A DNA stretch of 64,000 nt from positions 226,272 to 290,271 of the forward strand of contig CAWEHW010000004.1 in assembly GCA_963809045.1 (NCBI GenBank), given 5' to 3'. The notes below the pieces were generated by a model that saw nothing but the letters and a program-made list of their open reading frames with translations, ran no database searches and was not told where the DNA came from. Of the stretch, positions 6,097 to 47,832 are shown piece by piece. The stretch comes from an uncultured Chloroflexia bacterium (GTDB taxonomy: Bacteria > Chloroflexota > Limnocylindria > Limnocylindrales > CSP1-4). Each line of letters starts with the position of its first letter. Position 1 is the first letter of the stretch. Made by a program: the position numbers and the translations under genes.

Positions 6097-6173
6097 TGGC
6101 GCGCCCGACAGGATTTCGAACCTGCGACCTTCGGCTCCGGAGGCCGACGCTCTATCCACTGAGCTACAGGCGC
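6097..6173 (-). tRNA. tRNA-Arg(CCG), with an 8-nt T-loop
   Basis: GCGCCTGTAGCTCAGTGGATAGAGCGTCGGCCTCCGGAGCCGAAGGTCGCAGGTTCGAAATCCTGTCGGGCGCGCCA folds as a cloverleaf with encoded CCA. Confidence 0.93.
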
Positions 6174-39449: not shown

Positions 39450-39899
39450 TCAGCGTGGCCGCCCCTCGCGCAGGGCATCGATCGACTTGGCGATCCGACG
39501 CTGACGCGTCTCGTCCGTCTTCGCGCCATCGATCTGGTAGGTGTGCCAGCTCTGGTTGCTGTACGACAGGGCGTCGAAGGTGCGGCGAGCGGCAGGCTCG
39601 GCGTCGAGCGCCGCCGCCAGGTCGGGTGGCACGTCGATGGTTCGCGGCGCGGTGTCCAGCTCGATATCGACGTCGACCTCGTCGCCGCCCGCCACCCCGG
39701 CACCCGCACGATGCTCGGCACTGACGCCGACCATGAAGTCGCCACCCATGACCGCGATGCTGCTCCGGTAGGTGAAGCCGTTGATGGTCACGGTCACCTT
39801 GGGCCGCTTGCCTGCCCCGAGTGCCTCGACCACCTCCTCCGGAACGCGGATGCCGGTTGCCGTCTTGTCGCTCTGCAGGATCGTGGTGCGGAAACGCAT
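39450..39899 (-). CDS. DUF1905 + YdeI/OmpD-associated protein
   Basis: TGIRVPEEVVEALG...YRSSIAVMGG, VPPDLAAAL, AKTDETRQRRI. Confidence 0.88.
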   Translation of the reverse strand: MRFRTTILQSDKTATGIRVPEEVVEALGAGKRPKVTVTINGFTYRSSIAVMGGDFMVGVSAEHRAGAGVAGGDEVDVDIELDTAPRTIDVPPDLAAALDAEPAARRTFDALSYSNQSWHTYQIDGAKTDETRQRRIAKSIDALREGRPR

Positions 39900-40061
39900 C
39901 GCAGTCATCCTCAACGTGTTGGTCGTGTCCACAATGGCACGCCGGTCGAGGCGTCGCGGCGCAGCCGGCGGACGGCCGCGACGCGGGGTTGATTCAGCGC
40001 TGCAACGCCGCGGGGCTGGCCACCGGCAGGCCCGATCCACACGCGCTGCCATCGTCCGGGG

Positions 40062-41222
40062 GTGGCGATCTTCGGTTCCGTGTTTGCCCTGCTCGGACGA
40101 TTCGCCGGCCGGGTCCTGAATAGCGCGCTCGGCTGGGCCACGCTCCTGCTGTTCGGCAAGGTGGAGGGGCGCAACCAGTCCGTGCTGCTGGTCATCGCCC
40201 TCGGGTCCCTGGTCTGGGTCCTGGCGATCGTCGGGGTGTTGATCCCGGACGTGGGGACGTTCCTCCTGGCATTCGTCCCGGTGCCGGACTTCATCGACGA
40301 GAACGTGGTCAGGCTGGCGATGGTCGGTGTCGTCGTGGTCATCCCGCTGCTCATCGGCGCGGCCGCCCTGTTCATCGCCGATCCCGTGGCACGACCACAG
40401 CGCCTCAACCTTGCCGGTGGGGTGCTGCGCGGTTACCCGTTCACCCTCGTCCTCGCGATCACGATCCTCGTCCTGGGTGCCGTGTCGGTCGTCCGCAAGG
40501 TCCGCAGCCTGGCGAAGCGCTGGGAGGATGCGCACGTGCCCATGATCGTCAAGCCGAACGGGTACGACACGGTCCTCGCCGACCTCGAGGGCGTGCTTCG
40601 ACGGGCTGGCTTGCCGGTGGAGCCGAGGCCGGCGCCGAGTGTCGTGTCGCTGCCGCCCAGGTTGCTCGATGCGGTCGCGGGTCGCGCCCTCGGGGCGCTC
40701 GTGCCGGACAAGCTGATGCTCCTCCACGCCCCGGATGTCGAGGTGCTGGTCTACCCCTCCGATGTTGCGATCAGCGGGTCTCGCGGCGCGGTCGCACGGG
40801 CACGAGCGGCGATCGCCGCTCAGTTGACGAGATCGCCGGCGTACATGACGGCCAGTGCCGAGGCGCAACGGATCGAGGACGAGGTCCAGGCGCTGGCGGA
40901 AGGCTCCGCTCGGCGCGGAGCAGCCGACTGGTCAGCGCTTCGGGAGCGGCTTGCCGACATCGACCGGCGGCTCGTGACCTTGACCGTTCCCTTCGACGAA
41001 TGGGAGACGGTCTATCGCGAGCGTCTTCAGGTGGAACGGGACGCTCTCATTCGCCAGCTCGGGGGAATCGCGGTCGTGGACGAAGGCGCCGGCGAGCTCA
41101 TGCCGGACGCGGCCCGTCCAGGCTCAGTCGAATGGGCCGTCGCCGCCGTCGGACTCGCGCTCCTGGCCGCCGACGTGCTGCTGCTGGTGCGATCGCGATC
41201 AACGACACATCGTCGGCCGTAG
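40062..41222 (+). CDS. Hypothetical multi-pass membrane protein
   Basis: Several hydrophobic segments, a soluble middle domain and a C-terminal TM; CATCGT 6 nt before the GTG. Confidence 0.7.
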   Translation: MAIFGSVFALLGRFAGRVLNSALGWATLLLFGKVEGRNQSVLLVIALGSLVWVLAIVGVLIPDVGTFLLAFVPVPDFIDENVVRLAMVGVVVVIPLLIGAAALFIADPVARPQRLNLAGGVLRGYPFTLVLAITILVLGAVSVVRKVRSLAKRWEDAHVPMIVKPNGYDTVLADLEGVLRRAGLPVEPRPAPSVVSLPPRLLDAVAGRALGALVPDKLMLLHAPDVEVLVYPSDVAISGSRGAVARARAAIAAQLTRSPAYMTASAEAQRIEDEVQALAEGSARRGAADWSALRERLADIDRRLVTLTVPFDEWETVYRERLQVERDALIRQLGGIAVVDEGAGELMPDAARPGSVEWAVAAVGLALLAADVLLLVRSRSTTHRRP

Positions 41223-41708
41223 GCGACGTCCGTCGCTCCAAGCGACTGCCCCGGGCGCCTGGGCCGCCAAGCGAGGGAATAGGTCGATCGGACTGCCGCC
41301 GCTTGCGCTCCTCGCCGTGCGCCGGACATGAAAACGCGCCGTTCGAAGTCTTTACGTCCGAACGACGCTTGAACAATCTGACTGGCGAGAGCCCACCGGG
41401 GCGTCACTGATTTCGCATCGGCCGTTGCATCCACGTTGCAGTCGATCTGGCGTAAAGCAGGCCGCTGGCCGGACTGTTTTGTCAGATTTCCGCCCCACGG
41501 TCGCTAGTCGAGGATTTTCCGCCCAAACCCCGCTCAGAAGCCGCCAGGAGATGGCACGCGAGCGTGAGATCGAGCCGGCAGGCCGGGACCGAAGGGCCAA
41601 GAGGCGACTAGCGATCTCCGGGCGAGAATCGGTCAAATTTCCGTGTCATCCGTTGCCACGTTTCCGTGGGGCGGGAATTTGCCAAGGTTCTCGACGCGCA
41701 ACACAGGC

Positions 41709-41800
41709 TGCAACCGGCTGGCTGAGCACGGAGGTGCAACCGACTGGGCTGGCACGGAGGTGCGACCGACTAGGCTGGCACGGAGGTGCAAACCGACTGG
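41709..41800. repeat. Intergenic 26-bp tandem repeat (about 3.5 copies)
   Basis: tgcaaccggctggctgagcacggagg / tgcaaccgactgggctggcacggagg / tgcgaccgactaggctggcacggagg / tgcaaaccgactgg. Confidence 0.9.
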
Positions 41801-41825
41801 CGGCCGGCCCCGATTTCAAGTCCCG

Positions 41826-42003
41826 GAAATGCCGAAGCGGCTCCCGAAGGAGCCGCTTCGATGCTGTCCCGGTAAAGGTGCCCGCCAAGGCGAACACTTC
41901 TGCCGCGCGTCAAGAGCATCTATCACGTCGGCTGCACCGACTACCCTGACCCTACCTACCCATGACCTTGTCGCTGGGGCAGCGTGGCTGTTTGAGCAGC
42001 ATC
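41826..42003 (-). ncRNA. Candidate structured small RNA (6S-like architecture, family unassigned)
   Basis: Promoter TTGGAA-17-TAGGAT, end-pairing GAUGCUG/CAGCAUC, nested stems and a UUCG terminator. Confidence 0.6.
41833..41860 (-). terminator. 12-bp stem with UUCG loop
   Basis: CGAAGCGGCTCC-TTCG-GGAGCCGCTTCG followed by GCATTT. Confidence 0.75.
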
Positions 42004-42066
42004 AATATCCTACCTGAGATAGGGCCGTTTTCCAAGGGTTTTGGCACGTCTCAGTGTGTAAATTCC

Positions 42067-42567
42067 TTAACCTTCGTTGTCGTCGTGGACCGTCACAGAC
42101 GTCATGGCGACCGGATCGGAGGGCAGGTCGCGGCTGTCGCGCGGGGCGCCGACGATCTTGTCGACGACGTCCATGCCACGGGTGACCTGCCCGAACAGCG
42201 TGTAGTTCTTGGGCAGCTTGCCGGTCAGGTCCTGGTGGCAGATGAAGAACTGGCTGCCGTTCGTGTTCGGCCCGGCATTGGCCATGGCGAGGGCGCCGCG
42301 GACGTAGTCCCCCTGGACCGTTTCGTCCTCGAACTTGTACCCGGGGCCGCCCGTCCCGACCCGACCTCGCTCCAGCGATCCCTTCTTGCCGTACTGCCCG
42401 TCACCGGCCTGGGCGACGAACCCCGGAATCACCCGATGGAACACGACGTCGTCGTAGAACCCCTTTCGGGCGAGATCGACGAAGTTGCCGGCTGCCTTCG
42501 GGGCGCTCTGGTCGTACAGCTCGATCTCGATATCACCAAGGTCGGTTGTGATGGTGGCGCGGGTCAT
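42067..42567 (-). CDS. Cytoplasmic cyclophilin-type peptidyl-prolyl isomerase
   Basis: FHRVIPGF, GTGGPGYKF, AMANAGPNTNGSQFFI, YTLFGQV. Confidence 0.93.
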   Translation of the reverse strand: MTRATITTDLGDIEIELYDQSAPKAAGNFVDLARKGFYDDVVFHRVIPGFVAQAGDGQYGKKGSLERGRVGTGGPGYKFEDETVQGDYVRGALAMANAGPNTNGSQFFICHQDLTGKLPKNYTLFGQVTRGMDVVDKIVGAPRDSRDLPSDPVAMTSVTVHDDNEG

Positions 42568-42598
42568 CGGCAGACTCCTCCTGGCTGGACGGTTGGGC

Positions 42599-43329
42599 TC
42601 ACGGGTTGCTGACGGTGACCCTGGTCATGACCACGGGGTTCGTCGGCAGCTCGGCATCGGCGGCCGCAGCGATGGCATCGACGGCGTCCATACCGGACGA
42701 CACGGTCCCGACGATCTGGTAGGTGTTGGCTGACGCCAGGGAGGACCGCGCCTCGTCGGACAGGACGATGAAGAACTGGGAGCCGACGGAGTTGGGCAGG
42801 CTGGTCCGGGCCATCGCCACCGTGCCGCGGCTGTAGGCCGCCGTGACCGGTTCGTCCTGGATCTCGTAGCCGGGTCCACCGGTGCCGGTCCCCGTTGGGT
42901 CACCGCCCTGGATCACGAACGTCGGCACGACGCGATGAAAGACCACGCCGTCGTAATAGCCGCACCCGGCCAGAGCGACGAAGTTGCCCGCAGCGATCGG
43001 CGACAGGTCGGCCTCGATCGTGATCGCGATCGGGCCCATGGCCGTGTCGATCGTGACGGTCCGGGTCTCCCCGGCAGGGAGTGGCTCGGGCTGGCTGGTG
43101 GGACAGGCGGCCGGACCGGCCGAGCCCGCGGAAGTCGGCACCGGCGTCGCTCCCCCGGCGCTCGAACAGGCGGCGAGAAGGAGGCAGGCGACGGCCGCGA
43201 GCGCGGGACGGAACCCGGCCGACGCGGCGCGCGACCCGGCCGACGCGGCGCGCGACCCGGCCACGCGGCGCGCGACCCGGCCGACGCGGCGCGCGACCCG
43301 TTCGCTCGGTGACGGACGGCAGGAATCAT
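42599..43329 (-). CDS. Lipoprotein cyclophilin; N-terminal VNTR with a 1-bp frameshift (alternative in-frame GTG at 43264)
   Basis: LLLAAC lipobox, FHRVVPTFVIQGGDP, MARTSLPNSVGSQFFI; the coupled ATG at 43329 is out of frame with the domain. Confidence 0.8.
43213..43300. repeat. 21-bp VNTR, 4 copies (third unit 20 bp)
   Basis: acccggccgacgcggcgcgcg units start at 43213, 43234, 43255 (one g missing) and 43275. Confidence 0.92.
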
Positions 43330-44027
43330 GCGGCGGCCTCCAGGGCTGCGGGGAAATCGATGGCCCCGGAGAACAGGGCTTCTCCGAGGATGACGCCGCT
43401 GACGCCGGTATCGCGAATGCGGCGCAGGCCGTCGAGGTCTCGTACCCCACCGGCCGCGATGAAGTCCGCATCGTACGTCCGAATCAGTTCGCGGGTCCGG
43501 TCCAGGTCGGGTTCGGCACCGCCGTGACTCAACACGAAGCGTGCGACGCCGGCACCGACAAGCTCGCCGACGAGACCGATGAGGGTTGGCGGCGCGCTTC
43601 GCTGCCAGGGGAACGCGGCGAGTCGCTCCGGTCGTGGATCGAGGCCGACCGCAAGCCAGTCCCCAGCCACCTCGAGGCACGCTCGCAGCTCGGCCGGCCG
43701 ATCCGCGATGGCCGTGGTCATCACGATCCGGGTTGCGCCGGCCGCGAAGGCCAGGCGGATCGCATCGGCGGACTCCACGCCGCCGGCCAGCTGTAGTGGC
43801 ACCGCCACCGTGGCGGCAATCGACCCCACCGCCTCGAGATTGGCCGGTGCTGCCAGGCGCGCGCCGTCGAAGTCGACCAAGTGGACGAGCTTCGCGCCCA
43901 ACGCCACGAACCGCTCGGCGATCCGGTCCGGTCGATCCGTGGGAGCGCCGATGCCGGCCGCCGCGCCCGGCCAGTACACGAGGCGCGACCGCCCACCCTC
44001 GAGATCGATCGCCGGGATGACGTGCAC
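43326..44027 (-). CDS. Divergent HisA/HisF-family TIM-barrel protein
   Basis: VIPAIDL, LVHLVDFDGA, PLQLAGGV, IAAGGVRDLD, GVILGEALF. Confidence 0.8.
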   Translation of the reverse strand: MHVIPAIDLEGGRSRLVYWPGAAAGIGAPTDRPDRIAERFVALGAKLVHLVDFDGARLAAPANLEAVGSIAATVAVPLQLAGGVESADAIRLAFAAGATRIVMTTAIADRPAELRACLEVAGDWLAVGLDPRPERLAAFPWQRSAPPTLIGLVGELVGAGVARFVLSHGGAEPDLDRTRELIRTYDADFIAAGGVRDLDGLRRIRDTGVSGVILGEALFSGAIDFPAALEAAA

Positions 44028-44034
44028 GATCGCG

Positions 44035-45717
44035 TCAGGCGCGTTCGGCGAGGAGGCGGCGCTGGAAGCTGATCGGGATCGAGCCGTTCTGCAGCAGGGT
44101 GTCGTGGAAGGCCTTGATGCTGAAGGCATCGCCAAGACGGCGCTGCTCGTCGGCACGGAGACCCAGGAGCAGCGTCCGGCCCAGGAGGTACGACAAGGGA
44201 TAGGTCGGGCGGTACGTGTACCACTGGGCCTCGGCGTGCGCGTTCGGTCGCTCGAAGTTCGTGTGCGCGACGATGAAGTCCGTCGCTTCATCAACCGACA
44301 TCTCGCCCCGGTGCATCCGGACGTCGAGGATGATCCGGCACGCCCGCCAGATCGCGTCCGTGTGCATGATCAGCCGGAAGCGCGGGTCGGCATCGAACCC
44401 GTGCTCGCGCATCATCAGTTCCGAGTACATCCCCCAACCCTCGACGAACTCGGGTGCGTCCGCGAGCAGGCGGGTCAGCGACGGGTGCCGCCGCGCGGTG
44501 TCCAGCTGGAGGTGATGGCCGGGATAGGCCTCGTGGATGCTGGTGTTGCTGATCGAGGCGTAGTTGTGCTCGCGCACCGCATCGGGTTCGCCGTCGACCG
44601 AGGGGGTGACGACGTAAATGCCCTTGGGGTCGGCGTCGAAGGCGGCCGGCGAGAAGTACGCCGCGAACGGCAGGACCTTCCGGAGGTACTCGGGCGTCGC
44701 GACCACGTCGATGCGCTCGTCCTCGGGCACGGTGATCAGGTCGTGGTCGATGAGGTGCTGACGTGACCGCAGCATCGACGAGCGATAGGCCTCGAGCGCT
44801 TCGTCGAAGGTCGTCGGGTGATCGGACTTGACGCGGTCGATGACGACCAATTCCTCGACGTCCGGATCGATCTCGCGCGCCGCCGCCGCCCGGCCGGCGA
44901 GCTCCTCGTGGAGGCGTTCCCAGCCAAGTGCGAGGATCGCGTCGGCGTCGAGGCCATCGAACGCCCGGAGCCCGACCATCGCGTCGTGACGCTCACGGCC
45001 GATCGCCCAGTCGTCGGTCCCGTTTGCCAGCGTGCCCTCGACCCAGCTCGAGTACAGGTCGATCGCGATCTTGGCGGTCTGCGCGGCGCGTTCGAGGCGT
45101 CGCTGGTCCACGGTCTCGAGGACACCGGCCCCCGCCGACACCAGCTCGTCGAGGAACACGGGCAGGTCGGCTGCCGAGTCGACCTCGATCTGCTGCCAGC
45201 GCCGCACCTGGGGCACGGTTGCCCGGGTCTTCGCCTCCTCGAGGTAGGTGCCGACGGCTTCCAGCCGTCCAGCGATCGCAGTGAGACGCTCGGCAAGAGG
45301 CGCGTGGTCACGCGCGAAGAGCAGGAACAGGCTGTCCCCGACATGGTCGATCGCGAACGACCGACGCTCCCAGATCCGGAGGACGTCGGTATCGAAGATC
45401 GTCCGCTGCAGGTTATGGATCTCCAGGTCGCGCTCGAACCGGGCGGTCGTGGACAGGCCGGCCGGGTCGATGGCTTCGATCTCGGTCAGGTGTGCGCGCT
45501 CATCCGCGAGCTCTGTCAGCACCTGCTCGCGGCTGCCGTCGCCCAGCACGTCGTCGTCATCGTGCAGGCCGATGGCCGTCGCGAACACCGGGTTGTCCCG
45601 GACGAGGCGGACAAACCGGTCTTCGACAAGGTCGTAGAGCGCGTCGTCAAGCGGCCCGCGATCGGCGGCGGGCGCCGGTCGTGGCAGGGTACGCGGGACA
45701 AGTGGTTCGGTCGTCAA
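44035..45717 (-). CDS. DUF885 family protein
   Basis: HEAYPGHHLQ, FVEGWGMYSE, WRACRIILDVRMH, FHDTLLQNGSIP; TTG start with GGAGG. Confidence 0.88.
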   Translation of the reverse strand: MTTEPLVPRTLPRPAPAADRGPLDDALYDLVEDRFVRLVRDNPVFATAIGLHDDDDVLGDGSREQVLTELADERAHLTEIEAIDPAGLSTTARFERDLEIHNLQRTIFDTDVLRIWERRSFAIDHVGDSLFLLFARDHAPLAERLTAIAGRLEAVGTYLEEAKTRATVPQVRRWQQIEVDSAADLPVFLDELVSAGAGVLETVDQRRLERAAQTAKIAIDLYSSWVEGTLANGTDDWAIGRERHDAMVGLRAFDGLDADAILALGWERLHEELAGRAAAAREIDPDVEELVVIDRVKSDHPTTFDEALEAYRSSMLRSRQHLIDHDLITVPEDERIDVVATPEYLRKVLPFAAYFSPAAFDADPKGIYVVTPSVDGEPDAVREHNYASISNTSIHEAYPGHHLQLDTARRHPSLTRLLADAPEFVEGWGMYSELMMREHGFDADPRFRLIMHTDAIWRACRIILDVRMHRGEMSVDEATDFIVAHTNFERPNAHAEAQWYTYRPTYPLSYLLGRTLLLGLRADEQRRLGDAFSIKAFHDTLLQNGSIPISFQRRLLAERA

Positions 45718-45739
45718 AGGACCTCCGGAGCGCGCCGAA

Positions 45740-46864
45740 TCAGGCGCTGGCGACCAGTGACCCGCTCTCGACGGGCTGTGGGCTCGTGTCGGCAAGAGCC
45801 GCCCGCGTGGCGTCGATCGTCGTCTCGATGTCATCCACGGTGATGCCGTAGTGCGTCACCGCACGAACCTGGCCGTGGGGATATTCGACCATCAGCACGT
45901 TGCGTGCCCGGAGCGCGTCGAGGAACGCTGCGCGATCACGCGCGACCTTGAACAGCACGAAGTTCGTGCGGACCCGGGCGGGATCGAGCGGTCCGGTGCC
46001 TGGCTGGGCCGTCCCACCGGCAGATCCGATCCCGTCCAGTTCGCTGAGCGCCTCCGCGAGCCTGCGTGCGTTGGCGTGGTCCTCGGCGAGGCGTTCGATC
46101 GTGCCATCCGGGCCGTCGGACAAGGCGACCAGGCCCGCAGCGGCGAGGATTCCCACCTGGCGCATGCCACCGCCGACCATCTTTCGTGCGCGACGCGCAC
46201 GCCAGATGAGATCGCGCGGACCAACCACGAGCGAGCCGACCGGACAGGCCAGCCCCTTCGAGAGGCAGAACGTCACGGTGTCGGCCGGCGCGGCAAGGTC
46301 CGTGGCGCGAACGCCGAGCGCCACGACGGCGTTCCAGAACCGGGCGCCGTCGATATGCAGCGGGACGCCATGCGCGCGGGCGATGGCGGCGACCTCGCGC
46401 GTGTACTCGAGCGTCAGTGGCTGCCCCATCGAGTGGGCATGCGTGTTCTCGATGGTGACGAGCCCGCTGATCGGCTCGTGCGCATCGTCAGGATCGCGGA
46501 AGGCTGCGTCGATCGCCGCGGGATCCATGGTCCCGTCCGGGCGGTCCTCGAGCGAGCGGATGCTGGTGCCGACGATGACCGCATGCCCGGCAGCTTCGTC
46601 GAGGACGACGTGGTGCTCGCGCCCGGCGATCGTCTCCTGCCCCCGGTTGAGGTGCGCGAGCTGGGCGACCAGGTTGCCCATCGTGCCCGAGGCCACGAAG
46701 AGACCGGCTTCCTTGCCGAGCAGCTCGGCCGCGCGTTCCTCGAGCGCGATCACGGTCGGGTCGTCGCCGAAGACATCGTCGCCAACCTCGGCGTCGGCCA
46801 TGGCCCGACGCATCCGTGGCGTGGGCCTGGTGACGGTATCGCTCCGCAGATCGATCAGTGACAT
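45740..46864 (-). CDS. ltaE: Low-specificity L-threonine aldolase
   Basis: [45 protein letters not shown]. Confidence 0.92.
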
Positions 46865-47755: not shown

Positions 47756-47832
47756 GGACCCGTGGTGTAGCGGCCCAACATGCCAGCCTGTCACGCTGGA
47801 GATCGCCGGTTCGAATCCGGTCGGGTCCGCCA
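47756..47832 (+). tRNA. tRNA-Asp(GTC)
   Basis: GGACCCG...CTGTCAC...GGTTCGAATCC...CGGGTCCGCCA; canonical 77-nt cloverleaf. Confidence 0.97.

Follow-up and report, generated by a model that had tools for sequence, protein, structure and literature searches.

A conserved, structured small RNA encoded downstream of cyclophilin genes in Candidatus Limnocylindria

We analyzed a 64,000-nucleotide (nt) stretch of contig CAWEHW010000004.1 from an uncultured Chloroflexia bacterium (hereafter the window, to which all positions refer unless another contig is named) and found that the small RNA encoded on its minus strand, at approximately 42000 to 41826, is real. The RNA spans 41826 to 42000, or about 175 nt including its terminator, with inferred ends, and holds about 140 nt of structured sequence between the promoter and the terminator hairpin. 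It is present in RNA libraries, where it is probably abundant. It appears to be a previously undescribed family that, as judged from sequence matches, is confined in the sampled genomes to the uncultured Chloroflexota class Candidatus Limnocylindria. Our best reading, in which we place about even confidence, is a stand-alone, trans-acting family of structured small RNAs, restricted to this class, whose loop recognizes a partner. A first-pass annotation, made from the letters of the window alone, had offered two accounts of the RNA, a divergent 6S RNA and a new small RNA (sRNA) family. The second has held up: the RNA is discrete, conserved, structured, found in RNA libraries, and without an Rfam family.

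The small-RNA locus and its distribution

The start of the RNA near 42000 is inferred from promoter spacing. On the minus strand, the -35-like hexamer TTGGAA (42030 to 42035) and the -10-like hexamer TAGGAT (42007 to 42012) are separated by 17 nt, exactly as first annotated, and the motif is kept upstream of the RNA in relatives. The pattern TTGNNN-N16-18-TANNNT occurred at the fixed upstream distance in 141 of 156 distinct loci, compared with 2 of 156 downstream control regions of the same size. By group, it was found in 100 of 115 loci of family f1, all 11 of group g2, and all 30 of family f4; the commonest -10 forms among relatives were TAGGAT (37), TAGACT (27), and TATCCT (23).

At the other end, the intrinsic terminator (41826 to 41860, minus strand) consists of a 12-bp stem between 41860 and 41833 with a UUCG loop, followed by the tail GCAUUUC. 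This hairpin had also been described correctly. In all 187 distinct 3' segments from relatives, a count made without a control, a hairpin with a stem of 8 bp or more and an energy of -12 kcal/mol or lower begins no more than 8 nt from helix P1 (see below), and in 169 of them at least three U residues fell within the next 10 nt. Similarity to relatives ends at about 41821, directly past the terminator. A generic scan for sigma-70 promoters and terminators across 41000 to 43000, with thresholds of at least 9 of 12 consensus matches and at least five T residues in the tail, reported nothing. Because the hexamers score 8 of 12 and the tail has three U residues, both signals lie marginally below these thresholds, and we rejected the null result as evidence against them.

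The spacer between the stop codon of the upstream cyclophilin gene and the -35 box (42036 to 42066) has similar letters across families, reading TAAGGAATTTACA...AAAACCC in f1 and TAAAGGAATCT... in f4. This conserved spacer may act as an operator or as an element of the promoter upstream of the -35 box.

To relate the RNA to known families, the window was searched with Rfam 15. At gathering score, the small RNA matched no family, and the sole matches in the whole window were two tRNAs (6100 to 6173, minus strand, and 47756 to 47829, plus strand). At E ≤ 10, the best match on 41500 to 42200 scored 19.6 bits (gathering score, 50), and none was to 6S RNA, signal recognition particle (SRP) RNA, transfer-messenger RNA (tmRNA), or RNase P RNA. 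Relatives from three families likewise had no family match; a sub-threshold match to RsmY at locus L081 (21.8 bits against 57) covers only the terminator and was set aside. The first-pass annotation had stated that the RNA lacks SRP, tmRNA, and RNase P signatures, and all three RNAs indeed match elsewhere in the genome, SRP RNA at C5:87455-87554 (72.1 bits), RNase P RNA at 189.4 bits, and tmRNA at 118.1 bits. Among the widespread housekeeping small RNAs, only 6S RNA was without a match in the genome. No Rfam family, 6S included, was thus matched at the locus or in relatives.

As the first-pass annotation had noted, the RNA has no convincing ORF (open reading frame): the AUG within CAUGGG meets a stop after 3 codons here, 5 in f4, and 19 in g2, and plus-strand ORFs that overlap the RNA had no Pfam match. 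Strings of 18 to 19 nt from the core, searched as DNA and as RNA, were absent from the searchable literature, and listings there gave no link between Limnocylindria and small-RNA topics; subscription journals lie outside the coverage of both searches.

We then determined how widely the RNA occurs. In a DNA search of 41 related genomes, 20 of the 24 from the genus of the window contained the full 215-nt query at 82 to 95% identity. In family f2, the central 52 to 58 nt were found at 88 to 90% identity in all 16 genomes, which are 1.0 to 1.4 Mb in size. A covariance model, R1, built from 25 distinct sequences (30 loci, with 5 duplicates dropped), matched 141 of 151 genomes of the order, representing 25 of 27 genera, nearly always once per genome. 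Two genomes of the same genus, G010 (contigs C14 and C16) and G113 (contigs C2 and C3), each have two equally scoring copies on separate contigs, which may reflect either a true duplication or redundancy from assembly or binning.

A second covariance model, R2, represents the P2 arm (see below) and comprises 63 distinct sequences from three families (f1, f2, and f4). In the class sample, R2 matched 46 of 49 genomes of f1, 7 of 7 of f2, 51 of 55 of f4, 1 of 38 of f3, and 0 of 1 of f5. The f4 matches, a tally that includes two genomes flagged as unpublished (G231 and G247), comprise 50 strong ones (70 to 77 bits) and a weak one, and the sole f3 match is weak (E = 0.02). Nearly all sampled members of two of the three well-sampled Limnocylindria families therefore carry the RNA.

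Among 151 genomes sampled across the phylum, matches outside the class were limited to three weak ones of 24 to 28 bits (L113, L114, and L115), and all were judged false. One lies inside the HATPase_c domain of a histidine-kinase gene, another shares the G-rich 22-mer and lacks the other loop strand, and the last is a partial GC-rich match. An exact-pattern scan with one genome per species found at least 120 stretches, and the records among the matches listed were mostly labeled Chloroflexota, Chloroflexi, Chloroflexia, Candidatus Limnocylindria, or Limnocylindrales. Three pattern matches (L211, L230, and L233) proved to be unrelated sequences. Contigs L142, L144, L147, L154, and L167 carry other labels (Steroidobacteraceae for two, and Polarisedimenticolia, Sulfomarinibacteraceae, and Anaerolineaceae) and contain complete f1- or f4-type RNAs with the usual upstream sequence; these five contigs are probably mislabeled or mis-binned.

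Comparative structure and the invariant loop

In the fold predicted by comparison among relatives, a 5' hairpin, P0, precedes a three-way junction that is closed by helix P1 and has P2 and P3 as its arms. In alignment A5, 100 of the 120 loci from the pattern scan were aligned to R1, giving 94 distinct sequences; truncated loci, one locus with Ns, the three unrelated matches, and a few more were left out. Of 3,340 alignment cells, 95.9% form standard pairs, compared with 31 to 41% when partners were slid by 1 to 3 columns. Changes on both sides were observed in 25 of 37 modeled pairs, compared with 14.8 ± 1.6 in shuffled alignments, none of 500 of which reached the observed value. The first-pass annotation had named covariation among relatives as a check on its proposal, and compensatory changes in 25 of 37 pairs across 94 distinct sequences were found. 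Two alignments based on MAFFT, A3 and A4, agree, with 96.5% and 89.4% of cells paired. The frequent G-U pairs fix the strand.

The RNA is also more stable than expected by chance when folded as a single sequence, with a minimum free energy (MFE) of -81.3 kcal/mol compared with -66.7 ± 4.2 kcal/mol for 200 shuffles (z = -3.5, with no shuffle as good). These single-sequence folds pair the G-rich strand with C-rich segments and were set aside as models of the structure. The comparative model of the window RNA has an energy of -63.7 kcal/mol, compared with -78.2 kcal/mol for the MFE fold. The GGGUAG and GGGUCAG repeats of the loop resemble the 3' partner in P1 and could pair with CUGCC(C), as they do in the MFE fold.

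P0 (41987 to 42000, minus strand) reads GCUG-CUCAAA-CAGC. In f1, its stems take the forms GCUGC/GCAGC, CUGCG/CGCAG, CUCCG/CGGAG, GUCGC/GCGAC, GCCGC/GUGGC, and GCUAC/GUAGC among 122 distinct sequences, and it is this compensating variety that constitutes the evidence for the hairpin. RNAfold gave at least four P0 pairs in all 122 f1 segments, a count made without a shuffle control. P0 is absent in g2.

P1 is formed by the 5' strand GCUGCCCC (41976 to 41983) and the 3' strand GGGACAGC (41863 to 41870), both on the minus strand. In A5, 98.9% of P1 cells pair and 5 of 7 pairs are compensatory. Within the 3' strand, CCGGGACAG is invariant in f1-type loci, and within f1, GCUG../..CAGC changes to ACUG../..CAGU in 6 loci. 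This helix replaces the closing stem of the first-pass annotation, in which GAUGCUG (42003 to 41997) paired with CAGCAUC (41866 to 41860). The two segments are complementary here, and comparison refutes the stem because its 5' letters belong to P0, where the GCUG sits in relatives, and to the spacer between promoter and start, which varies in relatives without compensation. The 3' GGGACAGC stays fixed in relatives, with GCUGCCCC as its partner.

The P2 arm pairs GCG-A-CAAGG-U-CAU (41962 to 41974) with AUG-C-UCUUG-A-CGC (41907 to 41919), again on the minus strand. Compensatory changes were found in 8 of 12 pairs in A5 and in 8 of 13 in the MAFFT-based alignments; at locus L073, for example, CGUGAUCAU/AUGAUCACG replaces CAAGGUCAU/AUGCYCUUG. 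The inner stem proposed in the first-pass annotation was thus right in part. Its GCG.CAAGG.CAU/AUG.UCUUG.CGC portion is this helix, whereas its CUGCC/GGCAG portion competes with P1: the pairing is compatible in 98.6% of 421 cells, barely varies, and has only 1 of 5 pairs changed on both sides. P1 is better supported than CUGCC/GGCAG, which is at best an alternative to it.

P2 ends in the apical hairpin P2d (41927 to 41941, minus strand), GUCGG-UGCAG-CCGAC, in which every cell is paired (100%) and compensatory changes affect 4 of 5 pairs; in f4, this hairpin has a 6-bp stem and a GAAA loop. The third arm of the junction, P3 (41874 to 41900, minus strand), is the hairpin GAAG-U-GUUCGC-CUUG-GCGGGC-AC-CUUU, with 8 of 9 pairs compensatory. 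P3 varies in length and sequence, and f4 lacks it altogether, with a linker of about 10 nt joining P2 to the 3' strand. The 3'-side hairpin GUGUUCGC-CUUG-GCGGGCAC (41898 to 41878), the G-rich run (41961 to 41942), and the apical hairpin (41941 to 41927) had all been read correctly from the sequence. One further helix of R1 within the loop, P2c (GUCA/UGAU), had 0 of 4 compensatory pairs and 8 to 13 unpaired cells per pair and was dropped.

Between the P2 helix and its apical hairpin lies a strongly conserved asymmetric loop. Its G-rich 5' strand, GGGUAGGUAGGGUCAGGGUA (20 nt; 41942 to 41961, minus strand), has G tracts that are invariant in 63 distinct sequences, and its 3' strand, GUGAUAG (7 nt; 41920 to 41926, minus strand), has invariant G1, A4, A6, and G7 in the same sequences. 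The consensus is GGGUAGGU(N0-2)GGGUNAGGGUA opposite GNGANAG, beneath an apical hairpin of 5 to 6 bp. Together with its closing pairs, the loop reads CAU-GGGUAGGU-(0-2 nt)-GGGU-N-AGGGUA-(hairpin)-G-N-G-A-N-A-G-AUG and is almost frozen in f1, f2, and f4. In the 63 sequences, the 5' strand varies only in the spacer after GGU (0 to 2 nt) and at the N of UNA. Variants of the 3' strand are GCGAUAG, GUGAAAG, and GUGACAG, with GUCAUAG and GAUAUAG in A5 rows. The adjoining cyclophilins are only about 40 to 55% identical, compared with this near-frozen loop.

RNA libraries, partners, and rival functions

Six RNA runs contain part of the stretch. The four that we analyzed, at the level of contigs only, are soil metatranscriptomes from four studies, and their contigs cover 41822 to 41988. 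The transcript that had been proposed is therefore represented in metatranscriptomes, its ends not being read from contigs. Positions 41650 to 41817 are uncovered in the four runs and 41986 to 42250 in X15 and X18; we give these gaps no weight, as the flanks are not conserved in relatives and contigs show presence only. In X15, the match of one contig stops at 41826, after which come 10 unlike letters and an A-run.

The reading introduced above would work as follows. The RNA would be transcribed from its own housekeeping-type promoter behind the cyclophilin gene or genes, with transcription ending at the intrinsic terminator, and would act in trans as an abundant RNA. The invariant loop of the P2 arm would be the recognition site for a partner, and the variable P3 arm would be dispensable. 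Consistent with this reading, the contigs of run X20 had depths of 557, 869, and 1,445 on the RNA compared with 8 to 15 on the cyclophilin gene (40- to 170-fold), and RNA contigs of X18 reached 309; contig depth sums relatives, is a poor measure of expression, and cannot rank genes, which is the first of several points that weigh against us. DNA carry-over in these RNA libraries is without a control. A 522-nt contig of X16 (record 4) extends from the RNA into the end of the cyclophilin gene, which shows that read-through or DNA carry-over also occurs. Contigs of X15 and X20 enter Illumina adapter sequence 5 letters past 41984, and another X20 contig does so at 41988. These ends place the beginning of abundant fragments inside P0, 12 to 16 nt downstream of the predicted start. 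The pair counts from A5 lean towards the structure of the model that made the alignment because the alignment was fitted by that model. Family f3, which belongs to the same class, is without strong matches (0 of 38), and the RNA is therefore not indispensable to the class. Finally, searches of the 91%-complete genome did not find Hfq (PF17209), CsrA (PF02599), or Ro/TROVE (PF05731), which removes the usual sRNA-binding proteins from the list of candidate partners.

The likeliest partner is a protein, with the RNA acting as a ribonucleoprotein or as a protein-titrating RNA, and we rate this at just under even. RNA polymerase would be one candidate, given that searches of the class detected no canonical 6S RNA. 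An analogy is offered by domain IV of SRP RNA, where an internal loop of this type is a protein-recognition site in an abundant housekeeping RNA. Like that domain, the new RNA has an asymmetric, near-invariant internal loop beside a short capped helix; unlike it, the loop sequences are unrelated, and the SRP RNA of this genome lies elsewhere. The new RNA also resembles the raiA motif RNA, an orphan structured sRNA from comparative genomics, in its length of about 100 to 200 nt, its own promoter and terminator, conserved unpaired nucleotides, multi-helix fold, and conserved neighborhood. The two differ in lineage, fold, and conserved nucleotides, and the new RNA has no match to an Rfam model.

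To our knowledge, Limnocylindria are known almost only from metagenome-assembled genomes, and we know of no prior work on their RNA biology. Judging by record titles and run labels, they are widespread in soil, groundwater, and lakes. Even the 1.0- to 1.4-Mb genomes of f2 retain a single copy of the RNA, which ranks with the most conserved sequences that these genomes contain. Such conservation, together with its presence in four soil studies, is a hallmark of a housekeeping ribonucleoprotein or a global regulator. The covariance model can be used to annotate several hundred genomes and would serve as a sensitive marker of the class in metatranscriptomes.

The strongest of the rivals to a loop that recognizes a partner, although unlikely, is a trans-acting sensor RNA in which a loop pocket, possibly a G-quadruplex, binds a small molecule or ion and switches between two folds. 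Both loop strands are near-invariant, and the G pattern of the 5' strand, G3-UA-G2-U(N0-2)-G3-UNA-G3, varies only between G tracts and has a G4Hunter score of 1.36, so that a G-quadruplex is allowed. Furthermore, the CUGCC(C) of the P1 5' strand (41976 to 41983) has two conserved possible partners, GGCAG (41901 to 41906) and GGGACAG (41863 to 41870), as expected of a switch; the RNA may thus undergo a conformational switch. In the specific form of this proposal, three GGG tracts and one GG tract would make a quadruplex pocket whose guanine vacancy senses a guanine nucleotide or another small ligand in trans across the class. Ligand binding would then flip CUGCCC between its two partners and control what the RNA binds. 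We regard this form as highly improbable. ViennaRNA with G-quadruplex energies predicted none in representatives of the three families, 1,862 regions of this GC-rich genome score as high or higher in G4Hunter, and one loop tract has two Gs only. A sensor acting in cis finds no conserved downstream gene, and no terminator/antiterminator alternative is visible by eye. A ligand-binding or quadruplex loop, if true, would add a new type to the natural RNA sensors.

We next considered the first account in the first-pass annotation, a divergent 6S RNA (SsrS, RF00013). In this view the RNA would be either a true Limnocylindria homolog of 6S RNA or a mimic of an open promoter, would sequester sigma-A RNA polymerase, and would template short product RNAs; we now think this quite unlikely. 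The two RNAs do share features. Like 6S RNA, which it resembles in size, the new RNA is single-copy, stand-alone, and probably abundant, as its contig depth in RNA libraries is high. It has a housekeeping-type promoter of its own and a helical body with a large unpaired loop, and the f4 RNA, as read from its sequence, could be drawn by eye as an irregular rod with one large loop. Canonical 6S RNA was found in 35 of 151 Chloroflexota genomes, yet in none of the 16 Limnocylindria of that sample, and in only 1 of 151 genomes of the class, a metagenome-assembled genome with 6% contamination. This genome does have SRP RNA, RNase P RNA, and tmRNA.

The architecture argues against this identity. RF00013 had no match at gathering score, at E ≤ 10 on 41500 to 42200, or at E ≤ 1 genome-wide, and neither the 6S hallmarks that the annotation had relied on (closing stem and central bubble) nor the long flanking helices of 6S RNA were found. 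The helix beyond the loop has only 5 to 6 bp and a tetra- or pentaloop; its counterpart in 6S RNA is long and mimics upstream promoter DNA. The loop of 20 to 22 nt against 7 nt lies directly under the apical hairpin and is not a central bubble between two long helices. Unlike the loop of 6S RNA, it is strongly asymmetric, sequence-invariant, and subapical. The end-to-end closing stem fails comparison; the body is instead closed by P1, with a separate 5' hairpin and, in f1 and g2, a branched junction. None of the motifs of the new RNA occurs in the 6S RNAs of other Chloroflexota. No cyclophilin gene lay within 1.5 kb of any of 12 canonical 6S loci from Chloroflexota, and the neighbors of canonical 6S differ from each other (EamA and an aldo-keto reductase; DNA polymerase III delta and starch synthase). 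The missing 6S RNA is itself weak evidence for a 6S-like role since family f3 lacks both the new RNA and a detectable 6S, as many other Chloroflexota families lack a detectable 6S, and the RF00013 control detects only 4 to 5 of 14 known genomes. 6S RNA in Limnocylindria is either too divergent for RF00013 across the class or absent. A true functional stand-in for 6S RNA would represent a second architecture for that job.

The RNA may alternatively act in cis within the cyclophilin operon, as a structured 3' untranslated region (UTR) with a terminator that stabilizes or regulates the mRNA; this too is rather improbable. In the window, the stop codon of the cyclophilin gene (42067 to 42567, minus strand; 166 aa; Pfam Pro_isomerase, E = 9.5e-45) is separated from the -35 box by 31 nt that contain no terminator, and the X16 contig described above spans the gene end and the RNA. 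A same-strand cyclophilin gene lies directly upstream of the RNA in f1, in g2, and in 27 of 28 further loci (26 of f4 type and 2 of g2 type), and this arrangement extends to all three families. Against a cis role, the position of the promoter motif is kept in 141 of 156 loci, and the depth of the RNA in X20 is 40 to 170 times that of the cyclophilin gene, subject to the caveats on contig depth. Moreover, a mere stabilizer would not need about 40 invariant unpaired bases. The arrangement is reminiscent of 3'-UTR-embedded sRNAs of the DapZ or MicL type, which act by Hfq-dependent base pairing. Like these, the new RNA lies at the 3' end of a protein-coding operon with a common terminator and is preceded by a promoter of its own near the stop codon. 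Unlike these, Hfq was not found here, and the conserved part is a folded internal loop.

Base pairing in trans, in which the G-rich strand would serve as the seed for C/U-rich sites in mRNAs, is very unlikely. The G-rich strand is invariant and is unpaired in the comparative model, as a seed would be. Outside its own locus, however, the 20-nt strand has only 2 poor complementary matches (at most 4 mismatches) and one 12-mer match in the genome, in a search for extended sites rather than seeds of 6 to 8 nt. In addition, Hfq was not found in the genome. The opposite loop strand and the closing pairs are equally invariant, which suggests a folded motif rather than a linear seed.

Four RNA classes also failed to fit. 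A riboswitch or cis-regulatory leader is at odds with the differing downstream genes, with a terminator directly after P1, and with no alternative pairing visible by eye. For a Y RNA in a Ro ribonucleoprotein, PF05731 was not found, an absence limited by the incompleteness of the 91%-complete genome. For a CsrB/RsmZ-type sponge, PF02599 was not found in the genome, and the conserved loop has no GGA. For an Hfq-dependent base-pairing sRNA, PF17209 was not found, and the genome has no extended complementary sites.

Neighboring genes and minor features

The genes downstream of the RNA differ among loci: they encode a DrrA-like ABC ATPase, DUF1905/OmdA, GmrSD_C, or a product of no family, and some lie on the opposite strand. 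The 94-aa and 135-aa ORFs directly downstream of the RNA had no Pfam match. At the two f3 loci examined, the next gene follows directly after cyclophilin, without the RNA. Directly downstream of the terminator, the window has a tandem repeat (41709 to 41798) with a 26-nt unit, 3.4 copies, and 89% matches. With as many as 4 mismatches allowed, the unit has no other occurrence in the genome, and relatives do not conserve the stretch.

In g2 and several f4 genomes, a tRNA gene lies from tens of bases to about 450 nt downstream of the RNA (L022:1308-1381 and L081:957-1029, and the f4 loci L079, L083, L088, L093, and L098). No tRNA gene takes this place in the genus of the window. The neighboring ORFs of the window, all on the minus strand, encode C-terminal DUF1905 and OmdA domains (39450 to 40868), His_biosynth (43326 to 44294), and DUF885 (44035 to 45834).

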